DNA of 64,000 nt from the NCBI GenBank assembly GCA_963768855.1, contig CAVYJM010000006.1, positions 384,001-448,000 on the forward strand. Direction: 5' to 3'. The DNA comes from an uncultured Thermoplasmata archaeon (GTDB lineage: Archaea; Thermoplasmatota; Thermoplasmata; RBG-16-68-12). The position numbers and the translations under genes are program-made. The notes under the pieces are model-generated. The model saw only the letters and a program-made list of their open reading frames with translations. It did not search any database and was not told the DNA's origin. Below, one piece after another: positions 1,821 through 16,344 of the stretch (its first letter is position 1; every line of letters begins with the position of its first letter).

Positions 1821-2438
1821 TCAAGCCGGTCCGATGCGGAAGATCCGCCACGCGTTCCATGCGGCCCAGCCCAAACCCGCGAACACGGTGAAATGCTCGA
1901 GGGCGTTCGACACGGTCCCGCCCGCGATCGGCGCGTTCGCGACGCTCTCGAACAGGACGGTGACGATGAAGAGCAGGGCGAACCCGCTCGCCACGACGGA
2001 CAGGATGCCCGACACCTTCCCGTAGCGCGGGTCGCGCCACATCGCGACCGCGTAGTGGCTAATCGCCATCATGAAGAGGAGGAAGAACAGGGCGGAGAAG
2101 ATGAAGTGCAGGTTGTAGGGCGACTCCTCGTGGAACACGCCGAGGAGGATCAGGAAGACGGCCGCGAGGGAGAGCAGGTACGTCCCGACGCGGCGCATCC
2201 AGAGCCGCATCCCCGCCCCGAGGGCCCACGCGTACGGCAGGAAGAACAGGCCCGCGAGGATGCAGGCGGAGTTGAAGGCCCATGACGCCGGCGCGCTCGG
2301 GTTCCCGAGGTCGCTCAGGCGGTTCCCCGTGATCGTGTAGCCGGGCGTCGAGAGGGCGGCGACGAGGTACAGGGCGACCCAGGAGGCGACCGCGGCCCCG
2401 CCGAACAGGGCGCCCGTCCGCGTCTCGATCCGCACCAC
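1821..2438 (-). CDS. DUF998-like multi-pass membrane protein
   Basis: PGYTITGNRLSDLG motif followed by about 5 hydrophobic helices. Confidence 0.75.
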   Translation of the reverse strand: MVRIETRTGALFGGAAVASWVALYLVAALSTPGYTITGNRLSDLGNPSAPASWAFNSACILAGLFFLPYAWALGAGMRLWMRRVGTYLLSLAAVFLILLGVFHEESPYNLHFIFSALFFLLFMMAISHYAVAMWRDPRYGKVSGILSVVASGFALLFIVTVLFESVANAPIAGGTVSNALEHFTVFAGLGWAAWNAWRIFRIGPA

Positions 2439-2545
2439 GGGATTCGCGATGCGCCGTGCGCGGTTAATGCTTGCTCTCCGCCCCCCCGCCGCCGAAACGT
2501 TTATGGCCGTCGAACCGGTCAGGCGGGCCCACTGAGGTTTCCTTC

Positions 2546-3025
2546 ATGGCGGAGAAACTTGATGTCCTCGTCGACGGAGGCAAGGCCACGCCCGGCGCGC
2601 CCTTGGGCCCCGCCCTCGGCCCCCTCGGCGTGAACATCGTCGAGATCATCAAGGCGATCAACGAGAAGACGAAGGCCTTCGAGGGGATGAAGGTCCCCGT
2701 CACCCTCGTCGTCGACCCGAAGACGAAGGCCTACACGATCACGGTCGGCACGCCGCCGACCTCCGCGCTGATCACGAAGGAGCTCGGGATCGAGAAGGGC
2801 TCCGGCGACGCGGGCAAGACGCGCGTCGGCAACATGACCCTCGCCCAGGCGATCAAGGTCGCGAAGATGAAGGAGGGCGTCATGCAGGGGAAGACGCTCA
2901 AGTCCCGCGTCCTCGAGGTCGTCGGCACGGCCGTCTCGATGGGCGTGAGCGTCGAGGGCAAGCCCGCGAAGGAGACGGCCAAGGAGATCAAGGCGGGCAA
3001 GTTCGACGCGAAGCTCGCCGGATAG
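2546..3025 (+). CDS. rpl11: 50S ribosomal protein L11 (archaeal)
   Basis: GGKATPGAPLGPALGPLGVNI and VGTPPTSALI motifs. ATG at 2546 follows TGAGGT. Confidence 0.97.
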   Translation: MAEKLDVLVDGGKATPGAPLGPALGPLGVNIVEIIKAINEKTKAFEGMKVPVTLVVDPKTKAYTITVGTPPTSALITKELGIEKGSGDAGKTRVGNMTLAQAIKVAKMKEGVMQGKTLKSRVLEVVGTAVSMGVSVEGKPAKETAKEIKAGKFDAKLAG

Positions 3026-3055
3026 TCCTCCTGCGCCAGGCGGTCGTTCCATTCC

Positions 3056-4501
3056 CTAGAGCGGGGCTGGCTCCGTCTCCGCGTAGGGGCGGAGCAAGGC
3101 GTCGCCCTTCTCCCGGATGTCCCGGTCCAGCGGCTCGACCTGGTGTTCGCGGAGCGTCTTCCGCACGACCTCCCGCGCGTCCGCCACCATCCGATCCGAC
3201 ATCGTCGCCCCGTAGGTCTGGGCCTTCTTGTTCCGGAAGAAGAGCTGGCTTCGGAAGTTCTTCGTCGTGTGGGGATGGCTGAGGAACGAGCCCCCGGGGC
3301 CGACCTCGCGGATCACGTCCAGGGACGCGGTCGTCTCGTCCACGGAGAAGTGCCTCATGTACGCGCGGAAGTCCTCCCAGTTGACCGCATCGATGACCAT
3401 CTGCTCCAGGGAGCAGCCTGCGTCGAGGTTGAGCCCGCCGATCCCGGAGCACAGGTCCGTCCCCGACATGGTCGTGAGCATGAGGGCCGCGAGTTCGCCG
3501 AAGGGGATGTCCACGCCCGGGCGGGGTGCGTCGACCCCGATGATGCCCGTCATTCGCGGCAAGCCGTACCGCCGCGCCATCTGGGCCGCCGCCGCGAAGA
3601 TCATGGGCGCCTCCGGCCCGCGGTACCCAATGTAACCCGAAGCCATGTCCGCCATCGTGGCCTCGGAGCAGTAGATGTGCGGCGCCCCGGACGCGGCGGT
3701 CTGCGTGATCACGAGGCTCGCGAGGGCCTCGGCATTCAGGGTGACGATCGTCCCGGCGAGGGTGACAGGCGCGGTGATCCCGCCCATGGCCATGGACATG
3801 CCGATGACCGGGATGCCCGCCCGCGCGTACTCGATCTGCGCCTCGACCGCGCCGGTCTCGAAGGAGAGCGGTGCGATGGGACAGCTCAGGACGGAGAACA
3901 GCGGGTGCTTCTTCAGCGCCTCCCTTCCTCCCGCCACGAGGGCCCCGAGGGCGATCTGGATCTTCGCGTCGGGCACGCCCAGCGTCCCCGATCCCGCGGA
4001 GCCGAGGATGTGCTTCGTCGTGTTCTGGAGGCACACCCAGAGTTCGTTCGCGAACTGCGCATGGGCCGGCACGTCCGACGTCGTCACGAGCGGCCAGACC
4101 GCGTCGATCGGGTCGAGCGCATCCGCGAGGCGCGCGATGTCCGCGAGGTCCTTCGTGGTCGCGGGGCGCGGCTTCCCGGTCTCCAAATCGGTGATGGAGA
4201 GGGTCACGCCGCCCGTGGACACGTACGGCGGGCCGCTCACCGGGATTCGGAGGTCGCGGTGCGGGTCCCGGGCGCCGAGGACGAAGGACTTCGGTGCCGT
4301 GAGGATCGAACTGGCCACGAGGGCCTCCGGGAGTTTCACGAGCTCCGTGCTGCGGCCGATCTGGGCGCCCGCGTCCGCGAGCATCTTCCGGACGCTCGCG
4401 CTGTGGACGAGCACGCCCACCGACTCGAGGCACTCCACGCTCTGCGCGTGGATGAGATCCTCTTCCGCCTTGTCCAGGAACCGGAGACCTAAGACCGCCA
4501 T
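3056..4501 (-). CDS. Trimethylamine methyltransferase (MttB) superfamily protein, non-pyrrolysine
   Basis: LESVGVLV N-terminus, PVTLAGTIV, ARRYGLP, SLEQMVID and GPGGSFLSHPHT. No in-frame TAG. The ORF-track extension to 5194 is not supported. Confidence 0.88.
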   Translation of the reverse strand: MAVLGLRFLDKAEEDLIHAQSVECLESVGVLVHSASVRKMLADAGAQIGRSTELVKLPEALVASSILTAPKSFVLGARDPHRDLRIPVSGPPYVSTGGVTLSITDLETGKPRPATTKDLADIARLADALDPIDAVWPLVTTSDVPAHAQFANELWVCLQNTTKHILGSAGSGTLGVPDAKIQIALGALVAGGREALKKHPLFSVLSCPIAPLSFETGAVEAQIEYARAGIPVIGMSMAMGGITAPVTLAGTIVTLNAEALASLVITQTAASGAPHIYCSEATMADMASGYIGYRGPEAPMIFAAAAQMARRYGLPRMTGIIGVDAPRPGVDIPFGELAALMLTTMSGTDLCSGIGGLNLDAGCSLEQMVIDAVNWEDFRAYMRHFSVDETTASLDVIREVGPGGSFLSHPHTTKNFRSQLFFRNKKAQTYGATMSDRMVADAREVVRKTLREHQVEPLDRDIREKGDALLRPYAETEPAPL

Positions 4502-4654
4502 GGGATATCCCTGCGCTGCGCGGGGTAGCCGTCTGGGGGGCTTCATGGCTGAGTAAGGGGTGTAACGACTTTCACGCCCAGGGAAAGGGTACAGGGTGGG
4601 GTGATCCATGCGCTTGAGGCGAAGGGTCAAGCGCCGCTCTCTGTTCGTCACGAC

Positions 4655-5089
4655 ATGGCCCTCGAACTCAGCGCCGTGATCCCTGCGACCCCGGACCAGG
4701 TGTTCTCCATCCTCTCGGACCTGAACCAGGCCCGGGAATGGATGCCCGCGATCCAGAGGATCGAACGCTTGGACGACAAGCCGTTCGGCGTCGGGACGTC
4801 TTGGCGGGAGACGCGCCAGGCCGGCAAGCGGACGATGGAGTCGACGATCCACGTGGTCGCCTGCGAGCGCGGGTCGCGAATCGGGCTCCGCGTGGAGTCC
4901 TCCGCCATGGAAGGCGACATGGAGTTCCTCCTGAAGCCCACAGGGCCCGGGACAGAGGTGCAGTACCGCGCCCAAATGAAGGGCCGCGGGGTCATGCGGC
5001 TCATGGGCGGCACGATCAACAGGATGATGGCCGAGGAGGACGCGGACCTCCTCATGCGGCTCGAGAAGCAGGTCTCGAAGAACCGCTGA
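4655..5089 (+). CDS. SRPBCC/START-family (polyketide cyclase-like) protein
   Basis: IPATPDQVF...WMP...GVGTSWRETR pattern. Confidence 0.8.
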   Translation: MALELSAVIPATPDQVFSILSDLNQAREWMPAIQRIERLDDKPFGVGTSWRETRQAGKRTMESTIHVVACERGSRIGLRVESSAMEGDMEFLLKPTGPGTEVQYRAQMKGRGVMRLMGGTINRMMAEEDADLLMRLEKQVSKNR

Positions 5090-5118
5090 TGCGATCCCGC
5101 CTCCGGCCGCGGGACGGC

Positions 5119-5613
5119 TCAGTGGTCTTCCGTCGTGTCGTACTTCTCCGATTCCGACCTCAAGTCGTAGGGTCTCCACTCGTAGGGCCACCACATCACC
5201 GCCGCGATCGTCATCATAACGGCCCCAACCTGGAAGAGGACGAAGTTCATGAGCGACCCAGGTTTGGCCTGGAGGACGGCGCCCTCCATGGAGAATCCCA
5301 CGACGAAGACGATTAGGGCGATGGTCGCCACGACCTCATCCTCAAGGGGGTGCTTGGTGTGGGTGACCGGGTGGCGGTCTACCGGGCCGCCAACGGCTCG
5401 GTTGCTCGTGCGCGCACGCTTCCGCAGGGCCCGACGGCGACGCGCCTCCAGGTAGATGGCCGCGTCGACGAAGCCCACGACGACGAGGCCCGCCGGTCCG
5501 ATCCAATAGGGAATGGCGAATTGCAGGAGAAACAGGAGGAGGATTCCCAGGGTAATGCCGCCTACGACCCCGGCGGCGCGCAGCCGCCCCCAGAAGCTCC
5601 GCCTTCGCGCCAC
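5119..5613 (-). CDS. Hypothetical membrane protein (about 4 TM)
   Basis: Two pairs of hydrophobic segments. The start is uncertain (GTG 5613 or TTG 5628). Confidence 0.55.
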   Translation of the reverse strand: MARRRSFWGRLRAAGVVGGITLGILLLFLLQFAIPYWIGPAGLVVVGFVDAAIYLEARRRRALRKRARTSNRAVGGPVDRHPVTHTKHPLEDEVVATIALIVFVVGFSMEGAVLQAKPGSLMNFVLFQVGAVMMTIAAVMWWPYEWRPYDLRSESEKYDTTEDH

Positions 5614-6161: not shown

Positions 6162-6983
6162 TCAGGGTTCGGGCGCGCGGGCGACCTTCATCTCGCGGCC
6201 GGCGTCCTCGCCGACGTGCTCGAGCATCGCCTCGAGCTGGATCCGGACGAAGTCCATGTCCCCGACCCACAGCCCCTGGATCTTGTCGCTCACGAGGACG
6301 CCATCGCGGTAGAAGGAGTTCACGATGAAGACCTCCTGGTCGCTCGGGAAGACGTAGCTGTGGGCGAGGCGGGTCTTCGGCAGGGGCCGGTCGGGGAAGC
6401 GGAACGAGACGCGGACGTTGCGGCCCAGGATGGCGCCGAGCTCGGGCAGGTCCTTCTTGTTCCCTTCGTTCAGGACGACGCGCACGACGCGCCGCGACCG
6501 GCTCAGGGCGTCGAACAGGAGTCGGAGGACCTCGGGGGCCACGGGGAACGGGCAGACGCAGAGGATCTGGTTCGTGCTCGACAGCACGATCTCCCGCATC
6601 TTTCGGCCGATGCCCTCCGCACCCTTGTAGATCCAGAGGTCCCCGTCCGTCTCCCGCGCGTGCGGGACGGCGGGCTCGCGGAGCGTGGCGACGAGCTCCG
6701 AGGCGGCGGACAAGTCGTCCGTCCGGACCTGGCGGGCCTCCTCCGCGACGATCCGCGGCGCCCGAGCTCGGTAGCGGTTGGGCCGCTCCTGCGAGACCTC
6801 GATCCACCCCTTCGTCTGGAGGGACTGAAGGATGCGGTAGACTGCGGGATACTGCACCTCCAGCAACGCGCTGACTTGCTGCGCCGTCGACACGCCGTTC
6901 CGCAGCAGGGCCAGATAGGCCCGGGCCTCTTTCCCGGTGAGGCCGAGGGCCTCGAAGGCCCTCGTCGCTTCCTCCTCTCGCAC
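6162..6983 (-). CDS. TrmB-family transcriptional regulator
   Basis: LGLTGKEARAYLALL...VYRILQSLQTKGWIEV...PNRYRA wHTH, followed by a C-terminal effector domain (IYKGAEGI...IVLSSTNQI). Confidence 0.88.
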   Translation of the reverse strand: MREEEATRAFEALGLTGKEARAYLALLRNGVSTAQQVSALLEVQYPAVYRILQSLQTKGWIEVSQERPNRYRARAPRIVAEEARQVRTDDLSAASELVATLREPAVPHARETDGDLWIYKGAEGIGRKMREIVLSSTNQILCVCPFPVAPEVLRLLFDALSRSRRVVRVVLNEGNKKDLPELGAILGRNVRVSFRFPDRPLPKTRLAHSYVFPSDQEVFIVNSFYRDGVLVSDKIQGLWVGDMDFVRIQLEAMLEHVGEDAGREMKVARAPEP

Positions 6984-7296
6984 GACGGACCATGGGGAGG
7001 CCCGATACAAAAGGCTTCGCGTTCTTATCATTGCCCGGCTGATAATGCGCGGCGTCCGCGTTGGCGGGGCGGTTCATCCGTCGCGAGAAGATGCAGCGAT
7101 AGGGACGAGGTCTCCTTTGACGAGGCGTTCAGTCCCTCCGCTTCCTTTCGGGCGTTCATGCAGGGGGCCAGCCGGGGGCGACTCGGAGCCCCTGCAGCAT
7201 GCAGGCTCCGACTGTTTCGGTCAACCTAAATCCTGAGAATTGTGTTCGCCACGTATATATCTCCGAGGGCGACATGGACCGACCGGCAACGAAGGG

Positions 7297-7734
7297 ATGC
7301 CTTTGGACCTGGTGATCCTTGGATTCGAGATCGCGTTCGAGGGCAGCCTGGTCGGCGTGGGCGTCCTCCTGCTCGCGACGTTCCTGGCCTTCGCTCGGAT
7401 GAACAAGGACGTCCGTCGTGCTCGCATGTTCATCATGGCGGACCGCGTGAAGCGGTTCCTCGGGGCGTTCACCCTTGGCTTCCTGGCCATCGCTGCGGAT
7501 TCGATCTTCTCGATCGCCGGCTTCCCCGCTCCGCCGGCGGTTTCCGTCAGCGTCATCTTCGTGTTCCTTGCGTCCATCGTCTTTGGGAGTCTCGAGCTGT
7601 TCCTGATCGTGCGGCCACCGCGCTCGCGGTTGCGCTCGCTGCGGCCGGCGATCGGCCGTCGGGGCGGATCGCGTGCTCGCGAGGCGGCGTCGTCCGAGGA
7701 CCCGCCCGAAGGAGAGACCCATGCCGCGCGGTGA
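7297..7734 (+). CDS. Hypothetical membrane protein (about 3 TM)
   Basis: Three hydrophobic segments and a basic C-terminal tail. Overlaps the start of the next gene by 14 nt. Confidence 0.65.
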   Translation: MPLDLVILGFEIAFEGSLVGVGVLLLATFLAFARMNKDVRRARMFIMADRVKRFLGAFTLGFLAIAADSIFSIAGFPAPPAVSVSVIFVFLASIVFGSLELFLIVRPPRSRLRSLRPAIGRRGGSRAREAASSEDPPEGETHAAR

Positions 7735-8549
7735 GGTCGAGGACGCGCACGAAACCGTCTCGACGGGAGAGGAGCCCGCGCTCGAGAACCAGCTCGAGCA
7801 GATTCTCCTCCAGCTCCGGCGACGGGCCCGCGGGGTGCGGGGCTCGGTCATCGCCGACGCGAACGGGCTCGCGGTGGCCGGGGACATCCGGGGCGGCATG
7901 AGCTCCGGCGTGCTCTCGGCGATGAGCACCCTCATCGCGCAGTCGGCGGGGGGCGTCTTCGAGAACCTGAGCATGCCGAACCCCGATTTCATCCTCATGG
8001 AGGCCCCTCTCGCCAACGTCGCGGTCATCACGATGTCCGGCGGGGAGCTCAGCCTCCTCGCGCTCGTGGACAAGGCGACGAACCTGGGGGTCCTGAAGAT
8101 CGAGATGAAGCGGGCCGCACGCGGGATCGCGGAAGCCCTCGGCCTCGCCTTCGGCGGCCGGGCGGACATCTCCGAGCTCTTCGTCCTCCACAAGAGCGGC
8201 CTCCTCCTCCGCCACTACTCCGATTCCCTGCAGGACCGACATCGACCGCGACATCCTCGGCGGGATGCTCGTCGGGGTGCAGGACTTCGTGAAGCAGACC
8301 CTCGCGACGAAGGAGGGCAGTCTGGACCAGATGCGGTACGGCGACTACACGATCTTCTTCGTGCGCGGCACGGACGTGATCGCGGCCGCGGTGGTCCGGG
8401 AGGGCGACGCCGAGAGCGTCCAGTATCAGGTCATGGACGCGCTCCAGGAGTTCGAGGAGCGCTACCGGACGACCCTGAAGTCGTGGACGGGGGACGCGAA
8501 CGCCTTCCCGGGCATCGACGCGTGCTTCGAGAAAGTCCTGCGGGCCTGA
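7721..8549 (+). CDS. Roadblock/LC7 (MglB-like) domain fused to a longin-like domain; +1 frameshift near 8231
   Basis: N-half GVRGSVIADANGLAVA...LSAMSTLI...NLGVLKIEMKRAA is roadblock-like. C-half ELFVLHKSGLLL...DILGGMLVGVQDFV...FEERY...WTG continues in the next frame after CTGCAGGACC. Confidence 0.8.
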
Positions 8550-8570
8550 AGGACGCCCTCGGCTCCGCGG

Positions 8571-9023
8571 CTACGGGGCTGGCGTGAGGCCTGCATCACA
8601 CGGCGGATTCGGACAAGCCATGATCTCCTGCTGGATGAGCCAGACCGTCACCCCGGTCTGGGGACACTGCGTCACTTGGATGGACTGCATCATCCCCGGC
8701 CCCCACGTGACGGCTACGTGCTTGGTGGTGTTGGAGTGGACGAGCTGGTTCGTGTCTCCCGTCCAATCGCCCGTGTAGGCCACGGACGCCACCACGTCGG
8801 TCCAGTACGTGCTCGTGAGGTTGAACTGGAGGACGCCCTGCAGGTAGGGCGGTTGTGACGACAGGCCGCACGAAAACCCGACGCCGGAAAGCTCCAAGTC
8901 TTGTGCGAATCGGTTGATCGTCGGCGGGCCTGCGGGCCTTTGCAGCGTATACCCGATGAGGAAACCTCCCAATCCCGACAGCACGAGGGCCCCAACGACG
9001 GCTAGAACGACGAGTCCCTTCAC
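8571..9023 (-). CDS. Small membrane-anchored or secreted hypothetical protein
   Basis: N-terminal hydrophobic anchor, beta-rich body and 4 Cys. Confidence 0.6.
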   Translation of the reverse strand: MKGLVVLAVVGALVLSGLGGFLIGYTLQRPAGPPTINRFAQDLELSGVGFSCGLSSQPPYLQGVLQFNLTSTYWTDVVASVAYTGDWTGDTNQLVHSNTTKHVAVTWGPGMMQSIQVTQCPQTGVTVWLIQQEIMACPNPPCDAGLTPAP

Positions 9024-9177
9024 GCAAGCATGCCTCCACCGCTGTATTGCCTGACCCGGCTTTAGGTCCGCGGGTCCGGCGGTCCGCTCCGCAAAACCTT
9101 AATAAGGGTCGGCTCTTTCGTCGGCTTCCCTCTGCAGGAGGCCGCGATGGCCGTCTGCACTGCAGGAGGCGACATCC

Positions 9178-9816
9178 TTGGCGGAAAAGCACTCCATCGA
9201 CACGGTGAAGAAGGCCCTCGAGGTGGCCAAGCCTCGGACCTTCAAGGAGACCGTCGAGGTCGCGCTGAACCTCCGCGAAGTGGACCTGTCCGTCCCGAAG
9301 AACCGGATCGACGAGGAGGTCGTCCTGCCCAAGGGACGCGGCAAGCAGGTCCGGATCTGCGTCTTCGCCTCCGGCGAGCTGGCCACGAAGGTGCGCCCGG
9401 TCGCCGACCTCGTCATCCAGCCTCAGGAGATCGAGGAGTATGCGGGCAACAAGCGCAAGGCGCACCTCCTCGCCCGCGATTTCGACTTCTTCGTCGCCGA
9501 GGCCCCGCTCATGCCCGTGATCGGCAGGCGGCTCGGCGTCGTCCTGGGCCCGCGGGGCAAGATGCCCCGGCCCGTGCCGCCCACCGCGGACCCGACGAAC
9601 CTGATCCGGAACATGCGGAACACGGTCCGCGTCCGGTCCAAGGACCGCCGGACGTTCCACGCCGCGATCGGGACGCGCGACATGCAGCCTGAAGACATCG
9701 CCGAGAACCTGGACGCGCTCGTGCGGCGCGTGATGGGTCGTCTCGAGCACGGACGCGACAACATCGCCTCGGCCTACGTCAAGACGACGATGGGCCCGGC
9801 CGTGAGGTTCCTGTAA
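9178..9816 (+). CDS. rpl1: 50S ribosomal protein L1
   Basis: RTFKETVEVALNL, LGPRGKMP and YVKTTMGP. TTG start with GGAGG 8 nt upstream. Confidence 0.97.
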   Translation: MAEKHSIDTVKKALEVAKPRTFKETVEVALNLREVDLSVPKNRIDEEVVLPKGRGKQVRICVFASGELATKVRPVADLVIQPQEIEEYAGNKRKAHLLARDFDFFVAEAPLMPVIGRRLGVVLGPRGKMPRPVPPTADPTNLIRNMRNTVRVRSKDRRTFHAAIGTRDMQPEDIAENLDALVRRVMGRLEHGRDNIASAYVKTTMGPAVRFL

Positions 9817-9820
9817 GGGG

Positions 9821-10709
9821 ATGACCATGGCCCACGTCGCTCCGTACAAGCAGGAAATCGTGAAGGACCTCGTCTCCCGCTTCGAGAAGTCCAAGGTCGT
9901 CGGCCTGGCGAACATCCACGGCATCCCGGCACCCCAGTTCCAGGGGATCCGCAAGAGAGCTCGCCGGACGCGTCGCGATCACGGTCGCGAAGAACAACCT
10001 GATCAAACTCGCTCTCAAGGAGGCCGGCGCGAAGCGCAAGGGCCTCGACGCGCTCGCCGCAGACATCGACGGCCAGACGGCCGTCATCACGGCGGACGTG
10101 AACCCGTTCAGGCTGTTCAAGGAGCTCGAGAAGACGAAGACGCCCTCTCCCGCACGGGGCGGCGAGCGAGCGCCCGAGGACATCTGGGTTCGCGAGGGCG
10201 ACACGCCGTTCAAGCCTGGGCCGATTGTCGGCGAGCTGCAGAAGGCCGGCCTGCCGGCGGCGATCGAGAAGGGCAAGGTCATCATCAAGAAGGACAAGCT
10301 CGTCGTCAAGGCGGGGGACAAGATCCCGCGCGAGGTCGCGCAGGTGCTCGCCCGCCTCGAGATCTTCCCGCTCATCGTCGGACTCGACCTGAAGGGCGCG
10401 TACGAGGACGGCATGGTCTACCACCGGGACGCCCTCGCGGTCGACGAGACCGTGATCCGCGGGCAGATCAGCACTGCGAGCCGCCAGGCTCTCGGGCTGG
10501 CGCTCGAGATCGGCTACGCGACGAAGGCGACGGTCCAGCCCCTGCTCGCAAAGGCGTTCCAGAACGCGCTCTCCCTCTCCGTCGAATCGGGATTCCCGAC
10601 GAAGGAGAGCCTCAAGCTCCTTCTCGCGAGGGCCCAGGCCCAGGCGCTCGCCCTGTCGAGCCACGTGCCGGCGGCTCCCGCGGAGGAAGCGAAGAAGGAT
10701 TCAGGCTGA
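9821..10709 (+). CDS. rplP0: 50S ribosomal protein P0 (L10); +1 frameshift near 9957
   Basis: MAHVAPYKQEIV...IPAPQFQ in one frame, then VAKNNLI...NPFRLF...TPFKPGPIVGEL in the next. Confidence 0.93.
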
Positions 10710-10737: not shown

Positions 10738-11046
10738 ATGGAATACGTATATGGGGCGCTGGTCCTGCACGCGGCCGGCCAGCCGGTGAACGAGGCGAAC
10801 CTGAAGAAGGTCCTGACCGCCGCCGGCGTGAAGGTGGACGAGACGCGCGTGAAGGCCCTGACCGCCGCACTCGAGGGCGTGAACATCGACGAGGCGCTGA
10901 AGGCCGCCGCCGCGATGCCCGCCGCTCCCGCGGCCGCACCCGCAGCCGAGAAGAAGGACGAGAAGAAGAAGGAAGAGAAGAAGGAAGAGGAGAAGGTCTC
11001 GGAGGAAGAGGCCGCTGCGGGCCTGGGTGCGCTCTTCGGCCTGTAG
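10738..11046 (+). CDS. rpl12: 50S ribosomal protein L12 (P1/P2)
   Basis: [12 protein letters not shown]-terminus, [14 protein letters not shown]-terminus and a GGAGGTGA SD. Confidence 0.97.
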
Positions 11047-11067
11047 GCCGGAGTCCGCACCTCACCT

Positions 11068-11085
11068 GCTTTTTCCATTTCCTTC
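11068..11085 (+). terminator. T-rich terminator of the rpl1-rplP0-rpl12 operon
   Basis: GCTTTTTCCATTTCCTTC about 20 nt after the rpl12 stop. Confidence 0.5.
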
Positions 11086-11305
11086 GAGGAGTAGCGGGAG
11101 CGCTGAGGCACCGTCAACGAGTCGTGACATTTTCCATGAGTCTGTGGTTTGACCGAGGCGACTCGCGTTCGACTCCTTTGGTGACTTTAATCGATGGGAC
11201 GTGCCTCGGGGTTGATGCGAAGTGGCCATCGTGCGGGCCCAACGCTCAGACCACTTCACCTCGGCGCGCTCTGTGCGAGAGCCCATGCATGTTGCTTGAG
11301 TTGCT

Positions 11306-12601
11306 TCACAGACGCTCGAGGGAATCACACCATTTCTTGAGTTGACTCGTAGGAACCCCTAGAGTCGCGGCAGATTTCCTCTCCCCATGCTGACGGTCCG
11401 ACTCAAGCGATCGAAGAGAAGCAGCCTTGGTCGAGCTCCCGTAGAGCTGCAGTTCCTGCGCCCTGATGCGCATGAAATGTCTGCCAGCCAGTGCCCGGTC
11501 GAGTAGATCGAATGCCTCGGCAATCTTGGCGGAAGCGCCCCTCGCAGTCGTAGTGTTCAGGAGGGAGCGGCAAACAGAGCACTTGCAGAATTCGCTCGGA
11601 TTCGCTGCATAGTAAGTGATTGCATTCGCTTTTACGACCTTCGTGTGTGCCCAAGGGACATAATAGCGAATGGGGGGGCCCCCGCCGCTTGCCTGGCGGG
11701 CAACGCCTTTCCATTCTGCGTAGCAGACGCCTGAAGACACTCCCTTCAACCCCGCGGCGGAAAGCATCAAGGCGTAGAACCCCCCATAGAGGGCCATCGG
11801 AGCGACCCCCCGCTCTGCGAGTTGCTGAACCAGACGTCCGTAGCCCATGAGCTGTGTTTCCGAGGAATGTGATTCGTCGAACTCGGAAATCCACAAAAGG
11901 ACACTTGGGAACTCGGCGTAGTCTGCGACAACTTGGTCGATGGAATCCTCGTCCAACAAGACGCGATCAGACAGGCAGATGACTGGGACAGTTAGTTCGG
12001 TTTTCCGCCGCGAGGCCGCACACTTTGCCATCTCGAGCGAAATAGAATACCATTCATCATCAATGGATGATGCATGGAAATAGGGTGCCACGAGGAACTC
12101 CGGTTCCAGTTGGGGGATCTCAGAACTCTCTCCAATCATTTGGAGATAGTCGGAAATCCTCCGCTGTGTCGATTCGCCTCGGGAGAGAGCAGTAAGTTCG
12201 AATGACAAGACTCTGTCAACCCATTCACGACCCGCAGCATTCAGCCTGCCGTTCTCGAAGAAATCGCGCGGCCTCAGCGGCCGCTTGCCAGCGATGGTGG
12301 GGAGTATGCCACCATATTCTTCGATTAGCTGGACATATGACTGTCGAAGGTCGTCCTCTTTCAGGACCATGCTCGGATCTTGAGCGAAGATGTAGGTCAT
12401 CGGGTCGATAAAGAATGGCTTCCGTGTCCTACCCAAAAGACCCGCGGCCCAGGATTGCCCCCACGCAGCAACGTTGGCGCCTATTACGATTCCATAGTAG
12501 CTGGGTGCTTCGGCCTCAAGGGGACCTGCGTCAGGCGCTATCCCCAATCGGTAGTAGATACGCAGGCTGCCGGACTTCCGAGGCAATTGGGCATCACCCA
12601 C
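11306..12601 (-). CDS. Hypothetical protein, probable TIM-barrel with a TGT-like zinc site
   Basis: 431-aa ORF with FFIDPMTY, YGGFYALML...GVSSG, and C-terminal CKCSVC followed by His 31 residues later. Confidence 0.65.
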   Translation of the reverse strand: MGDAQLPRKSGSLRIYYRLGIAPDAGPLEAEAPSYYGIVIGANVAAWGQSWAAGLLGRTRKPFFIDPMTYIFAQDPSMVLKEDDLRQSYVQLIEEYGGILPTIAGKRPLRPRDFFENGRLNAAGREWVDRVLSFELTALSRGESTQRRISDYLQMIGESSEIPQLEPEFLVAPYFHASSIDDEWYSISLEMAKCAASRRKTELTVPVICLSDRVLLDEDSIDQVVADYAEFPSVLLWISEFDESHSSETQLMGYGRLVQQLAERGVAPMALYGGFYALMLSAAGLKGVSSGVCYAEWKGVARQASGGGPPIRYYVPWAHTKVVKANAITYYAANPSEFCKCSVCRSLLNTTTARGASAKIAEAFDLLDRALAGRHFMRIRAQELQLYGSSTKAASLRSLESDRQHGERKSAATLGVPTSQLKKWCDSLERL

Positions 12602-13007
12602 GAGTCATTACCTGACTCCTCACCGCGGCAAGGAAGGCGGGGTACAGAACCTTGGATGTTTGAGCCCGCATCTCGACCTTAGCAATTCCATCGACTGCCA
12701 TGAGTCCGATTCCGTACTTCGCCAAAAGCTCTAGATCGACGCTCGGTACGTGCCGGGCCGAAACCGCGAGAAAGGCCTCGTGAGCGCAGAGCCTGTACGG
12801 GAGGACTTGTTGCAGACCCTGCCGCCAGTGGTCGACTTTTGCCTCGACGGCGACAACGTGCCCTGTGCGCGGAAGGACTCCGACTAAATCGATTCGCTTT
12901 GACAGAAAAGGAACCTCTGCCCGGACGCGATACCCAGCCTCGGCAAGGTAGCGTCGCACCCGCCATGTGACTTGCGTTTCCTTTTGCGGGTCATTTGTGG
13001 TCTTCAA
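12594..13007 (-). CDS. PD-(D/E)xK superfamily nuclease
   Basis: AEVPF...RIDLV...VAVEAK...GLQQVLPY: D, ExK and QxxxY-like motifs are intact. Confidence 0.8.
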   Translation of the reverse strand: MKTTNDPQKETQVTWRVRRYLAEAGYRVRAEVPFLSKRIDLVGVLPRTGHVVAVEAKVDHWRQGLQQVLPYRLCAHEAFLAVSARHVPSVDLELLAKYGIGLMAVDGIAKVEMRAQTSKVLYPAFLAAVRSQVMTRG

Positions 13008-13395
13008 TCACAAGCGTCTCCTTCCATTTCTTGAAGCCGTGGTCGCACGATAAAACCTTTCCTCCCCGCTCATGGCGGGCCAGCACAAGGAGGGTACAAT
13101 CGACCATACTAAGGCCCTTGGCTTTGGGATCAGCCAGCAGCCGGCCTATCTCGGCGACGATGGACTCGGGGATTTGAGTCTCGATGCGACTAAGGGTCCG
13201 AATGCGATCGGTGTCCTTTTCGTATCCCTCATGAGAGATGCCTGACTTGGCGTAGTGTTTCTTCAGCTCTACGAGGACGAGCGCATGGGTAACGTTGTAA
13301 TCGGCGCCGATGAGGTGGTCTCTAATCTTCTTCCCGCGGCCGGGCTCTCGGAAGAACGCTATCCATGCTGAGGTGTCCACAATCAACACACGCAA
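12991..13395 (-). CDS. PIN-domain (VapC-like) ribonuclease
   Basis: IVDTSAW, LVEL, SMVDCTLL and LSCD supply the four acidic PIN residues. Probable TTG start at 13395. Confidence 0.85.
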   Translation of the reverse strand: MRVLIVDTSAWIAFFREPGRGKKIRDHLIGADYNVTHALVLVELKKHYAKSGISHEGYEKDTDRIRTLSRIETQIPESIVAEIGRLLADPKAKGLSMVDCTLLVLARHERGGKVLSCDHGFKKWKETLVIEDHK

Positions 13396-13411
13396 GCATT
13401 GGACACTCCGG

Positions 13412-13981
13412 TCATGTCGCCCTCTCGAGATCAGGTCGGCTTCCGACGCCAAGCACATCGTCGAGGATTTTTGACTTTACCGTCATCCCTCTATAGTTGG
13501 CGTAAACATACTTCAACAACTCACTGAGCGGAACTCGGTTGAACCGTGTCTTGAGGCGTTCGAGAGCCCGCCTCTCTTCCGGCGTCAACTGGGCGAATAC
13601 CTTCTCTCCGACTTGGAGGCCGCGATCCGTCAGCCGATAAATCTCGACCTTCCCTGGTTCTCCCCCCGCATTCACCGATCCGGTCGCTGCTACCGCGTCA
13701 AGCATGTCGCGGTGGCTTTCAAACTTCTCCACATCAACCGCCAGTAGGTTTGCCTGCTTGAGCGCCTCGAGGTAATCGACGACCTCCTTAGAGTAGGGTC
13801 CGAGCTCGTAGGGCTTGTATGCGTATTCGGTCTTCGCCTCCTCAAAGCCTCCCTCCTCGAGAGCGAGGAAGACGAGCTTCTCAAGCCTTGTCACCCCTCG
13901 AATTGGCTCTCCCACGTGCTTGCTAGCCCCCTTGGCATAGAGAAGGCCCACTAGCAGGTCGAGTCCGAGGTTCCTTGCCAT
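13412..13981 (-). CDS. SocA/YwgA (DUF4065-like) winged-helix antitoxin-like protein
   Basis: RLEKLVFL...YKPYELGPYSKEV...YRLTDRG...LLKYVYANY. Upstream TTTAAG at 14014-14019 and a GTGAGGGG SD. Confidence 0.7.
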   Translation of the reverse strand: MARNLGLDLLVGLLYAKGASKHVGEPIRGVTRLEKLVFLALEEGGFEEAKTEYAYKPYELGPYSKEVVDYLEALKQANLLAVDVEKFESHRDMLDAVAATGSVNAGGEPGKVEIYRLTDRGLQVGEKVFAQLTPEERRALERLKTRFNRVPLSELLKYVYANYRGMTVKSKILDDVLGVGSRPDLERAT

Positions 13982-14155
13982 TTTCCCTCACGTTTCATAG
14001 ACCGCCGTGCTTGTCTTAAAGGTGCCTGAGGGGCCTGAGAATCGCATTGTCGCGACGCAATATTCCACGCCACTCTGACGGTTTCTGAGCCTCTCCTGAG
14101 GAACTTGACCCTACGTAACGTAGCCGGCGCTTATTGGGTCTGGGAATCCTCGGAA

Positions 14156-14431
14156 TTACAGTCCGTGTCCGCTCTCCGTCAGATTCCGCAGCCGCTGCAG
14201 GAACATCGCCACGGCCGCCCCGTCGACCACGTCGTGGTCGAACACGATCGTCATCCCGAGGAACTCGCAGGCCTCCACGCGGTCCTCCACCACCGCGGGC
14301 TTCTGCGCGATCGCCTCGAGCGCCACGCTCAGCGGGTGGGACTCGACCGGGATGCCCCTGCTGCTCCCGCCCGAGACCTTCCCGAACATCCCCACGGACG
14401 TCACGCGGACCGTCCCCATCGTCCGCTTCAT
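14156..14431 (-). pseudogene. C-terminal fragment of a 2-oxoacid dehydrogenase E2-like acyltransferase
   Basis: GTVRVTSVGMFG...KPAVVE...FDHDVVDGA. Only 91 aa; the N-terminal part of the catalytic domain is absent. Confidence 0.65.
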
Positions 14432-15186
14432 GCGGAACGGGCCGCGTCCGGTTGGGCCACGGCAGCGTGCCCCGCACGCCAGTACACGAGGCTCATCATT
14501 GTTCCGGAAGCGATGAGCACGATCCAGTTGATCGTAAGGATCGTGACCTCGAAGGCGACGATGTCTTGCGCCGCGACCGCCAGGGCGACGAAGGCGACGA
14601 CCGCCAAGACGAAGCCCGCGACGAAGAGCCAGCGGACGGCCCGCTCCGCGCGTCCTCCCTCGAACACCGGCGCGGTGAAGAGGAAGGCCACTGTCATGAG
14701 CAAGTAGCCGAGCGCCTCGAACACGATGAAGAACCCATGGGGATTGTACTGCGTGAACAGGGAGAGCCCGGCCGTCTCGCCGGCCTGGAGGCTTGGCACG
14801 ACGATTGCGAGCTGGATAGCGTAGTCCACTAGGATGACGGCGGCGTAGAGCAGGGCGAAGGACAGTCCGATGCGGCTGAAGACCTTCTTGCCCTCTGCGG
14901 CGTACGCATGGATGCAGGCCATGAGAACGACGAACGTGGGCGCCAACAGGATCCCTGGGACGAGCCAGACGTAGTCCTGGGGGATGAACGCGGCCACGTC
15001 CGTATAGGGGTACGGAACACAGGCGGTCCCGCAGAACGGGCCGCTCCTAGGGGGCGTCGAGATGCCCATGACCATGAACACCGCGGCCAGCACGGCCGTC
15101 AGGAAAGCCGACCAGAATCCCAGCCGGAATGCGTTAGTCGTGGCGAACGCCTCCGTCTCGGTATCAGGCGTAGCCGCCGTGGCCAT
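14428..15186 (-). CDS. Hypothetical multi-pass membrane protein
   Basis: About 6 hydrophobic helices and GC-typical codon use. Confidence 0.7.
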   Translation of the reverse strand: MATAATPDTETEAFATTNAFRLGFWSAFLTAVLAAVFMVMGISTPPRSGPFCGTACVPYPYTDVAAFIPQDYVWLVPGILLAPTFVVLMACIHAYAAEGKKVFSRIGLSFALLYAAVILVDYAIQLAIVVPSLQAGETAGLSLFTQYNPHGFFIVFEALGYLLMTVAFLFTAPVFEGGRAERAVRWLFVAGFVLAVVAFVALAVAAQDIVAFEVTILTINWIVLIASGTMMSLVYWRAGHAAVAQPDAARSA

Positions 15187-15381: not shown

Positions 15382-16344
15382 CTACGCGTCCACGAAGGGA
15401 CGATAGGAATCGAGGTGCGGCGTCGAGACGTTCAGCCGGTGTCCGGCCTCGATCACCTCGTCGTAGATCTGTCGGAACTCGGCCGCGTACTCCGGCTGGG
15501 TCTGGGACATGCGGCGGGTGACGGGCTGGGCAAGAGCGCGTCGCATGAGGGGCGCCGCGACGAGCGGCGCGGTCATGAACACTCGGGCGTCAGGAATCTT
15601 GCGGACGTCCACGCCCCGAGCCGCGCAGATGTCCATGGCCTCGCGGCCTGCGAGCAACGCCTCGTGGATCGCCTTCTTGTTCTCCGCGAAGGCGTCGTAC
15701 CCGCCCTCTTTCGCATTGGCGCCGGTGTACACCGCCGTGCTGGCGAAGTGGACCCAGTACCAGTGCACCATGTTCTCCGTGGTCTCGACCTCGAACCCCG
15801 CAGGGCGGAAGAGGCCCGAGACGAAGTCCAGGTTCTTGCGGGCTCCCCCTTCCACGACCGGCGGCGTCGGGCGGCCGCTCGTGCTCAGGCCGAGGTTCAC
15901 CTTGCCCTCGAACGCGCCGTCGAGGACGCCTTTCGACAGGACGCCTCCCGCCCGCGGCATCCCGAGGACGTACTGCTCCTTGGTCAGGGTGCGGTCGATC
16001 AGGTCGAGCCCGTGCCAGTTCTGATGGAAGAAGAGGACCACGGCGTTGCCCCGGTTCTTCGCGATCTCCGGGAGGACGGCCTCGGCCTGCGTGTAGCGCA
16101 CCGCATCGACGATCAGGTCGTACCCGTCTTCAGGGCCGAATGCGTTCACGACGTACGGGCGGTAGAGGACCTTGGTCTCCTCCGTGCGGCCCTCGCGGCC
16201 GTCCAGGATTCGGAGCGCGACTCCGTCCGCCCAGCGGCCCTCGTGACCCGGTCGCACCAGGAGGGACACGTTGTGGCCCGTTCGCTCGAACGCCCACGCA
16301 TGCATCGTCCCGATGACGCCGGCTCCGAACACGAGGATCTTCAC
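15382..16344 (-). CDS. Ketopantoate reductase (PanE/ApbA) family protein
   Basis: MKILVFGAGVIG Rossmann motif, YDLIVDAV and FFHQNW. Confidence 0.8.
   Translation of the reverse strand: MKILVFGAGVIGTMHAWAFERTGHNVSLLVRPGHEGRWADGVALRILDGREGRTEETKVLYRPYVVNAFGPEDGYDLIVDAVRYTQAEAVLPEIAKNRGNAVVLFFHQNWHGLDLIDRTLTKEQYVLGMPRAGGVLSKGVLDGAFEGKVNLGLSTSGRPTPPVVEGGARKNLDFVSGLFRPAGFEVETTENMVHWYWVHFASTAVYTGANAKEGGYDAFAENKKAIHEALLAGREAMDICAARGVDVRKIPDARVFMTAPLVAAPLMRRALAQPVTRRMSQTQPEYAAEFRQIYDEVIEAGHRLNVSTPHLDSYRPFVDA

Follow-up and report, generated by a model that had tools for sequence, protein, structure and literature searches.

The locus described here occupies positions 11306–13981 of a 64-kb stretch of DNA from an uncultured Thermoplasmata archaeon (this whole stretch is called the window) and consists of four minus-strand genes. 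Gene A is predicted to encode a small protein similar to the Panacea (SocA) antitoxins and is followed by a gene for a PIN-domain RNase, by gene C, for a putative PD-(D/E)xK nuclease, and by gene D, for a protein with the predicted fold of the tRNA-guanine transglycosylases (TGT). The four open reading frames (ORFs) were confirmed in the ORF listing of the window, and their coordinates are given in Table 1 together with those of three related cassettes from other genomes.

A first-pass annotation of this DNA had described tightly coupled genes with overlaps of 17 nt (PIN/C) and 8 nt (C/D) and one gap of 16 nt (between the stop of gene A, at 13412, and PIN), placed behind a single TTTAAG promoter and directly behind the rpl12 terminator. 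This arrangement was reproduced when the PIN protein is read from TTG 13395. The longest PIN ORF spans 12991–13458, from an ATG at 13458; the TTG start is preferred because the resulting protein, which starts with MRVLIVD, has the same length and N-terminus as the 134-residue orthologue of another locus (L001). The public gene call for gene D is an N-terminally truncated form of 354 residues (P0001, 82% coverage), but the orthologues run to 420–431 residues and GTG 12601 is therefore taken as the real start. The TTTAAG hexamer is present upstream of gene A and is a candidate archaeal promoter of the operon. At the other end, the rpl12 gene is convergent with the operon, its stop codon being placed at 11046 and followed by a run of five T (11070–11074).

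Table 1. Coordinates of the cassette features in the window and of three cassettes in other genomes (positions in their own sequences)
Feature	Coordinates	Strand	Description
Candidate promoter TTTAAG	14015..14020	-	TATA-box-like hexamer, 33 nt 5' of the gene A ATG; read from sequence
Gene A, Panacea/SocA (PanA)-like, predicted winged-helix core	13412..13981	-	189 aa; always first in cassette
PIN-domain RNase (VapC-like)	12991..13395	-	134 aa from TTG 13395; Pfam PIN match
Gene C, putative small PD-(D/E)xK nuclease, Hjc/MmcB-like	12594..13007	-	137 aa; invariant motif
Gene D, predicted divergent TGT-superfamily TIM barrel with C-terminal zinc subdomain	11306..12601	-	431 aa; AlphaFold2 (AF2) model
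Spacer between convergent rpl12 and the end of gene D	11047..11305	.	259 nt; one edge of the low-GC islet
pSI-1 cassette (L086, Arthrobacter sp. AK-1 plasmid)	2360-5188		A, transmembrane (TM) protein, C, D; directly after a relaxase gene
pNG400 cassette (L087, Haloarcula marismortui ATCC 43049 plasmid)	2373-5035		A-C-D only
L049 variant (Elusimicrobia metagenome-assembled genome, MAG)	6175-8311		270-aa A with N-terminal extension, then D directly

The operon had also been noted as richer in AT than its flanks, and the shift holds when it is computed. Its GC content is 56.7%, against 66.4 ± 1.3% in equally long, non-overlapping segments (z = -7.3), which makes it the lowest stretch in the 64 kb, and the GC content at third codon positions (GC3) is 62–67% in the operon genes and 86–94% in the flanking ones. 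The composition of the operon is foreign to its surroundings, and we read the cassette as a horizontally acquired copy. The borders of the islet were searched for flanking direct repeats of the att type, for tRNA genes and for Rfam RNAs, and none was found; nor did the same-genus genomes offer a clean before/after comparison with an empty insertion site. In three of these genomes synteny ends right after rpl12, and in the closest relative the contig stops ~280 nt past this gene.

Predicted folds and conserved residues of the four proteins

Gene A, annotated at first pass as SocA-like, shows a partial match to the PADLOC candidate model PDC-M19A (1.6e-11) and, in the same collection, a second partial match, to a type I S-subunit model in its C-terminal part. 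The orthologue in locus L006, 41% identical to it, matches the Pfam family SocA_Panacea (29.0 bits, cut-off 25.7), and the family's hidden Markov model (HMM) joins both proteins at E 1e-75; the orthologue on the H. marismortui plasmid pNG400 carries the NCBI annotation of a SocA-domain antitoxin. The AF2 model of gene A (predicted local distance difference test, pLDDT, 86) has its best PDB match in the C-terminal domain of DarG (7yk3_D, Z 10.1), with 154 of 189 residues aligned and a Foldseek rank of 1–2, whereas plain winged-helix regulators give Z ≤ 8.2. The gene A profile gave only chance TRPV matches among PDB sequences, with DarG at E 1.3. The Pfam match of the L006 orthologue and the structural match to DarG support the placement of gene A within the Panacea family or next to it. 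The PIN start follows gene A at 16 nt, so that a toxin-type gene lies directly adjacent, as in Panacea pairs.

The PIN protein matches PF01850 with 45.4 bits (1.5e-11, cut-off 23.6), and its acidic tetrad D...E...D...D is invariant in 11 orthologues, in agreement with the intact catalytic residues proposed at first pass. It scores 22 bits against the NCBIfam VapC equivalog, for which the cut-off is 80, and it is therefore not a canonical VapC. It is the putative effector or toxin of this copy, in a slot that is variable between loci.

In gene C the residues E10, D40, E55, K57, Q67 and G101 do not vary among 45 sequences, whose mean identity is 19%. The Pfam match is weak (REase_MTES_1575, 6e-4, under the cut-off), and the family profile against the PDB retrieves 3dnx (SPO1766) at E 0.003 and Hjc (1gef) at E 0.33. 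With the E10-D40-E55-x-K57 motif kept throughout, gene C looks like an active PD-(D/E)xK nuclease, as had been suggested from the window protein.

For gene D, no sequence match was found in Pfam, NCBIfam, PADLOC or the PDB, with either the single sequence or the profile, and the PHROGs returned only families of unknown function. The TGT family PF01702 gave no match to it at E ≤ 1; the genome-wide search with PF01702 yielded three other loci. The AF2 model (pLDDT 93, predicted TM-score, pTM, 0.91) was compared with VIA-align, and its five best structural matches are all TIM-barrel proteins of the TGT superfamily: ArcTGT (1iq8, Z 21.7), TGT (3unt, 20.6), QTRT2 (16.9), DpdA (7ui4, 16.4) and Cap10 (9ntn, 15.4). 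Other TIM barrels reached Z ≤ 12.9 in this exhaustive structural comparison, and Foldseek agrees, with TGT matches at a TM-score of ~0.5. The hhalign comparison of gene D with an ArcTGT alignment (E 8.6e-5) superimposes the zinc motif C339-x-C341-xx-C344...H375, this local alignment being reliable in the zinc region only and unreliable in the barrel part. A helical insert of ~100 residues follows the second barrel strand. Judged by this model, gene D forms a branch of the TGT fold that is both new and divergent; the fold together with the aligned zinc site bears out the first-pass reading of a TGT-like zinc protein.

Among 224 distinct members of the gene D family the Cys triad is kept by 213 and H375 by all, and D66, P67, T69, P173, Y174, W237, Y272, Y314, E383 and W424 are also conserved. 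The D protein of plasmid pSI-1 has lost the CxCxxC triad and keeps the C-terminal His, Glu and Trp, so that the zinc site appears to be dispensable in some members (the 11 of 224 without the triad). Cap10 has lost this site, which stabilizes nucleic-acid binding; its retention in gene D would fit a nucleic-acid substrate, in contrast to Cap10. A profile search gathered 1215 cluster representatives of the family at 50% identity, 660 of them at E ≤ 1e-30. The family spans more than 15 phyla of bacteria as well as several lineages of archaea, among them Asgard and DPANN/CPR-type organisms. A housekeeping role in tRNA modification was considered and ruled out by the patchy spread, the foreign composition, the plasmid copies and the accompanying toxin genes; the presence of an ArcTGT of the host elsewhere in the genome was also counted against it.

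Occurrence of the cassette in other genomes

The cassette was compared in ~50 loci, taken from metagenome contigs, species-representative genomes (41 loci), relatives of the same class and two plasmids, whose ORFs were classed with HMMs built from seven seed cassettes. Genes A, C and D occur together, in the same order and tightly packed, in essentially all of these loci, in archaea, bacteria and the two plasmids of cultured strains, and down to gene D identities of 23–30%. The exceptions are one contig that is cut at its edge and the L049 variant, without gene C. The nuclease and the 431-residue protein, whose pairing in other genomes had been singled out at first pass as worth checking, are thus syntenic in essentially every locus and always with gene A. 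The proposal of a four-gene module stands for A, C and D, which are fixed, and needs refining for the PIN gene, which is not a fixed member and represents one occupant of a swappable effector slot. Fusions of A with C were sought and none was found, the long 'A' ORFs being N-terminal extensions or artefacts of ORF calling.

The fourth gene takes several forms. PIN proteins of the PF01850 type, placed between A and C, are mostly archaeal, with one locus in Dehalococcoidia, and PIN_3-type proteins occupy the same slot in three loci (L017, L020 and L021); elsewhere this slot holds a protein of 160–280 residues that has a single TM segment at the N-terminus and two or three at the C-terminus. In a further variant no gene separates A from C and a SIR2-like protein of ~400 residues (with GAG.S, LNWD and LHGS motifs) follows gene D; these proteins match the PADLOC models Aga_SIR2 and SIR2 at 1e-8 to 1e-5. 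In a tree of gene D, which was a quick maximum-likelihood reconstruction with uncertain long branches, TM-bearing lineages enclose the SIR2 clade and TM-bearing archaeal ones surround the PIN clade, with at least 11 changes of effector label and with clades that mix phyla and domains. The distribution is patchy: of 301 genomes sampled from the class of the host, 4 carry the cassette, and among the 12 other genomes of the same genus one does, in partial form.

No further conserved partner was found among the 149 nearest neighbour ORFs. These include four serine recombinases, three integrases and two IS110 transposases, and also type I S subunits, type IIG and type III restriction genes, mad5 and Fic. 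No relative of the cassette was found in 50,697 phage records.

A proposed modular conflict system and its alternatives

The constant multi-protein core, the alternation of PIN, membrane and SIR2 modules attached to it, the foreign composition and the patchy, plasmid-linked spread argue for a conflict system and not for a housekeeping function. It is probable that the four genes are a copy, gained by horizontal transfer, of a modular conflict system without a name (serving defence or abortive infection, or addiction), made up of an A, C and D core and an exchangeable effector. The candidate undescribed defence module of the first-pass annotation is supported in this form, the defence function being what we infer. 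In PADLOC-DB (v2.0, 2023), searched at E ≤ 1 with the window proteins and at E ≤ 0.1 with C and D of the other variants, C and D found no match and gene A had only the two partial matches mentioned above. Nor does the combination correspond to a named system in the literature searched, where no paper links these parts and none joins Panacea/DUF4065 with a transglycosylase or with SIR2 in one system.

The DarG C-terminal domain, to which gene A is most similar in structure over nearly its whole length, neutralizes the DarT toxin by direct binding. The similarity does not extend to the rest of DarTG: gene A lacks a macrodomain, the cassette lacks a DarT-like ADP-ribosyltransferase, and the identity is ~12–14%. 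PanA proteins, for their part, pair with many unrelated toxins, RNases and membrane toxins among them, and neutralize both of these kinds in experiments (PMC8832971; NetFlax, PMC10440598). The cassette resembles such PanA-PanT pairs in that gene A, in or near the Panacea family, lies directly 5' of a toxin-type gene (PIN here, membrane proteins elsewhere). It differs in that gene A is not part of a stand-alone module of two or three genes, being locked to C and D in four-gene or three-gene A-C-D units, in that the toxin of the SIR2 variant is not next to A, and in that gene A of the window stays under the Pfam threshold.

In the mechanism envisaged on these analogies, gene A would bind the effector and silence it, in the way that toxins are silenced by PanA antitoxins and by the DarG domain, and the winged helix of gene A may also repress the operon. 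The translationally coupled C and D would act on nucleic acid, D by engaging a base of DNA or tRNA or flipping it out, and C by cutting. A cue derived from an invader and perceived by C and D, or the inhibition of these proteins by the invader, would release the PIN RNase; once freed, it would degrade RNA and halt the growth of the infected cell (abortive infection). In a more specific version, which is speculative and to which we give a low probability, gene D would sense foreign nucleic acid by flipping out bases, or act on it as a glycosylase, its targets being for example (hyper)modified bases (such as viral 7-deazaguanines) or a specific tRNA; it would work with C and, once engaged, would cause the Panacea protein to release the PIN, membrane or SIR2 killer.

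The overall design is reminiscent of the short prokaryotic Argonaute systems (SPARSA, SPARTA and SiAgo), Thoeris and CBASS, in which SIR2, membrane or nuclease effectors likewise alternate on a constant sensing core. The cassette differs from them in the absence of Argonaute/APAZ, TIR and CD-NTase components, its core being formed by the Panacea, PD-(D/E)xK and TGT folds. Two other proteins with the TGT fold, DpdA and Cap10, work in immunity. Gene D is set apart from the TGT superfamily by the missing sequence-level match (Pfam, PDB), the helical insert and its own set of conserved residues, and its partners in the cassette do not include QueC, DpdB/C or a CD-NTase.

Several observations weigh against a conflict system of this kind. 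Gene A of the window has no Pfam match at E ≤ 1 and falls below the threshold of PF13274 (SocA_Panacea). The Asp motifs of the TGTs (DSGG, DEC and GxDxFD), by which catalysis and the recognition of 7-deazaguanine or guanine are defined, are not recognizable in the consensus of the gene D family (in Zymomonas mobilis the nucleophile is D280, the general acid D102 and the base-recognizing residue D156), so that gene D may differ from the TGTs in its chemistry or even be non-catalytic. The L049 cassette does without gene C, and neither slot of the pNG400 cassette contains an obvious effector. The apparent enrichment of defence genes among the neighbours is modest. Finally, the roles given to A (neutralizer) and to C and D (sensor) are inferred by analogy.

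The modest links to defence islands, together with the lack of relatives in the phage records searched, speak for an alternative, an addiction (post-segregational killing) or selfish toxin-antitoxin (TA) cassette of mobile elements with no immune role. Here A and the effector would form a PanA-PanT pair, consistent with the predicted fold of gene A, and C and D would serve the element, in DNA processing or maintenance for instance. The relaxase gene beside the pSI-1 copy, the ParA gene beside that of pNG400 and the recombinases and transposases among the neighbours point in this direction. We nevertheless hold this possibility to be unlikely: most copies are chromosomal islets, some of them beside restriction-modification genes, it is typical of immune systems that swappable PIN, TM and SIR2 effectors are attached to a multi-protein core that stays constant, and a simple addiction module would need neither a conserved nuclease nor an enzyme-like protein of 430 residues.

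The structural match of gene D to DpdA (Z 16.4) and to TGT and ArcTGT (Z 20–22) raises the alternative of a modification-restriction system similar to Dpd, in which D would insert a 7-deazaguanine or another base as a mark of self, C would restrict unmarked DNA, A would act as controller and the PIN, TM or SIR2 protein as a backup. The intact nuclease motif of gene C would suit this scheme, as would the zinc site of gene D, lost in the protein modifier Cap10, and preQ0 should be available in the host, since the genome holds an ArcTGT and three QueC-like genes. We judge it distinctly improbable, as the TGT/DpdA Asp motifs are not recognizable, PF01702 misses gene D and the cassette is not accompanied by DpdB/DpdC-like or preQ0 genes, and as the constant presence of A and the exchange of toxic effectors would be left unexplained. 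Three Patescibacteria carriers have a normal TGT and no full-length QueC, a weak argument given that these genomes are MAGs and that salvage is possible.

A chance adjacency of two unrelated modules, a PanA-PIN pair and a separate C-D pair, is very improbable and is ruled out by the synteny of A, C and D with exchanged effectors: although A-PIN resembles a complete type II pair and PanA loci are treated by Kurata et al. as units of two or three genes (PMC8832971), A accompanies C and D in nearly every locus, PIN-less ones included (with A abutting C and SIR2 after D), and the genes overlap or are nearly contiguous.

The evidence thus supports an undescribed multi-gene variant of the Panacea-type TA/defence modules, organized around a new TGT-fold family and with a putative role in conflict. 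One of its members had already been named, the pNG400 orthologue of gene A (WP_049938427.1) being listed as a PanA by Kurata et al. in a 2022 survey that excluded neighbourhoods longer than three genes (PMC8832971), and this exclusion is perhaps the reason why the cassette was overlooked. If validated, the modular conflict system proposed here would add a widespread immune or TA system to the catalogue, would show a third way, in addition to those of DpdA and Cap10, in which the TGT fold was drawn into biological conflict, and would extend the idea of Panacea as a "universal antitoxin" from two-gene pairs to a multi-protein system. Should the sensor role of gene D be true, it would amount to a previously unknown mode of infection sensing common to archaea and bacteria. 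To our knowledge, archaeal defence systems are poorly charted, and the two cultured carriers, the strains with pSI-1 and pNG400, make the cassette testable.

Neighbouring genes and minor observations

On pNG400, genes for ParA and an HNH endonuclease are located upstream of the cassette. Directly 3' of it, in convergent orientation, lies a gene for a 137-residue protein, possibly a displaced effector, that carries a Cys-rich motif resembling a zinc ribbon at its N-terminus and a TM helix at its C-terminus. In the L049 variant a gene similar to those of extracytoplasmic-function (ECF) sigma factors (249 aa) precedes gene A, and no effector was seen. The L006 cassette (7329-9937) is followed by a run of genes of the TA or defence type, for a DUF2283 protein, a minimal nucleotidyltransferase and two Fic-domain proteins; a type III restriction-modification pair lies immediately upstream of the L008 cassette, and an integrase and a MazE-like gene upstream of that of L005.

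In the same genome as the window, a weak PF01702 match was found in a TGT-like ORF of 353 residues (E 8.8e-6; G000:C12:110441-112238, locus L012), placed ~800 nt 5' of a QueC-like gene (E 4.8e-35); these genes could be a pair of the DpdA/QueC or Cap10/Cap9 type. A second weak TGT-like ORF, of 612 residues, is located at C12:10105-10476. Beyond the cassette, the window continues with ordinary-looking genes of high GC content at 14428-15186 (a membrane protein) and 15382-16344.

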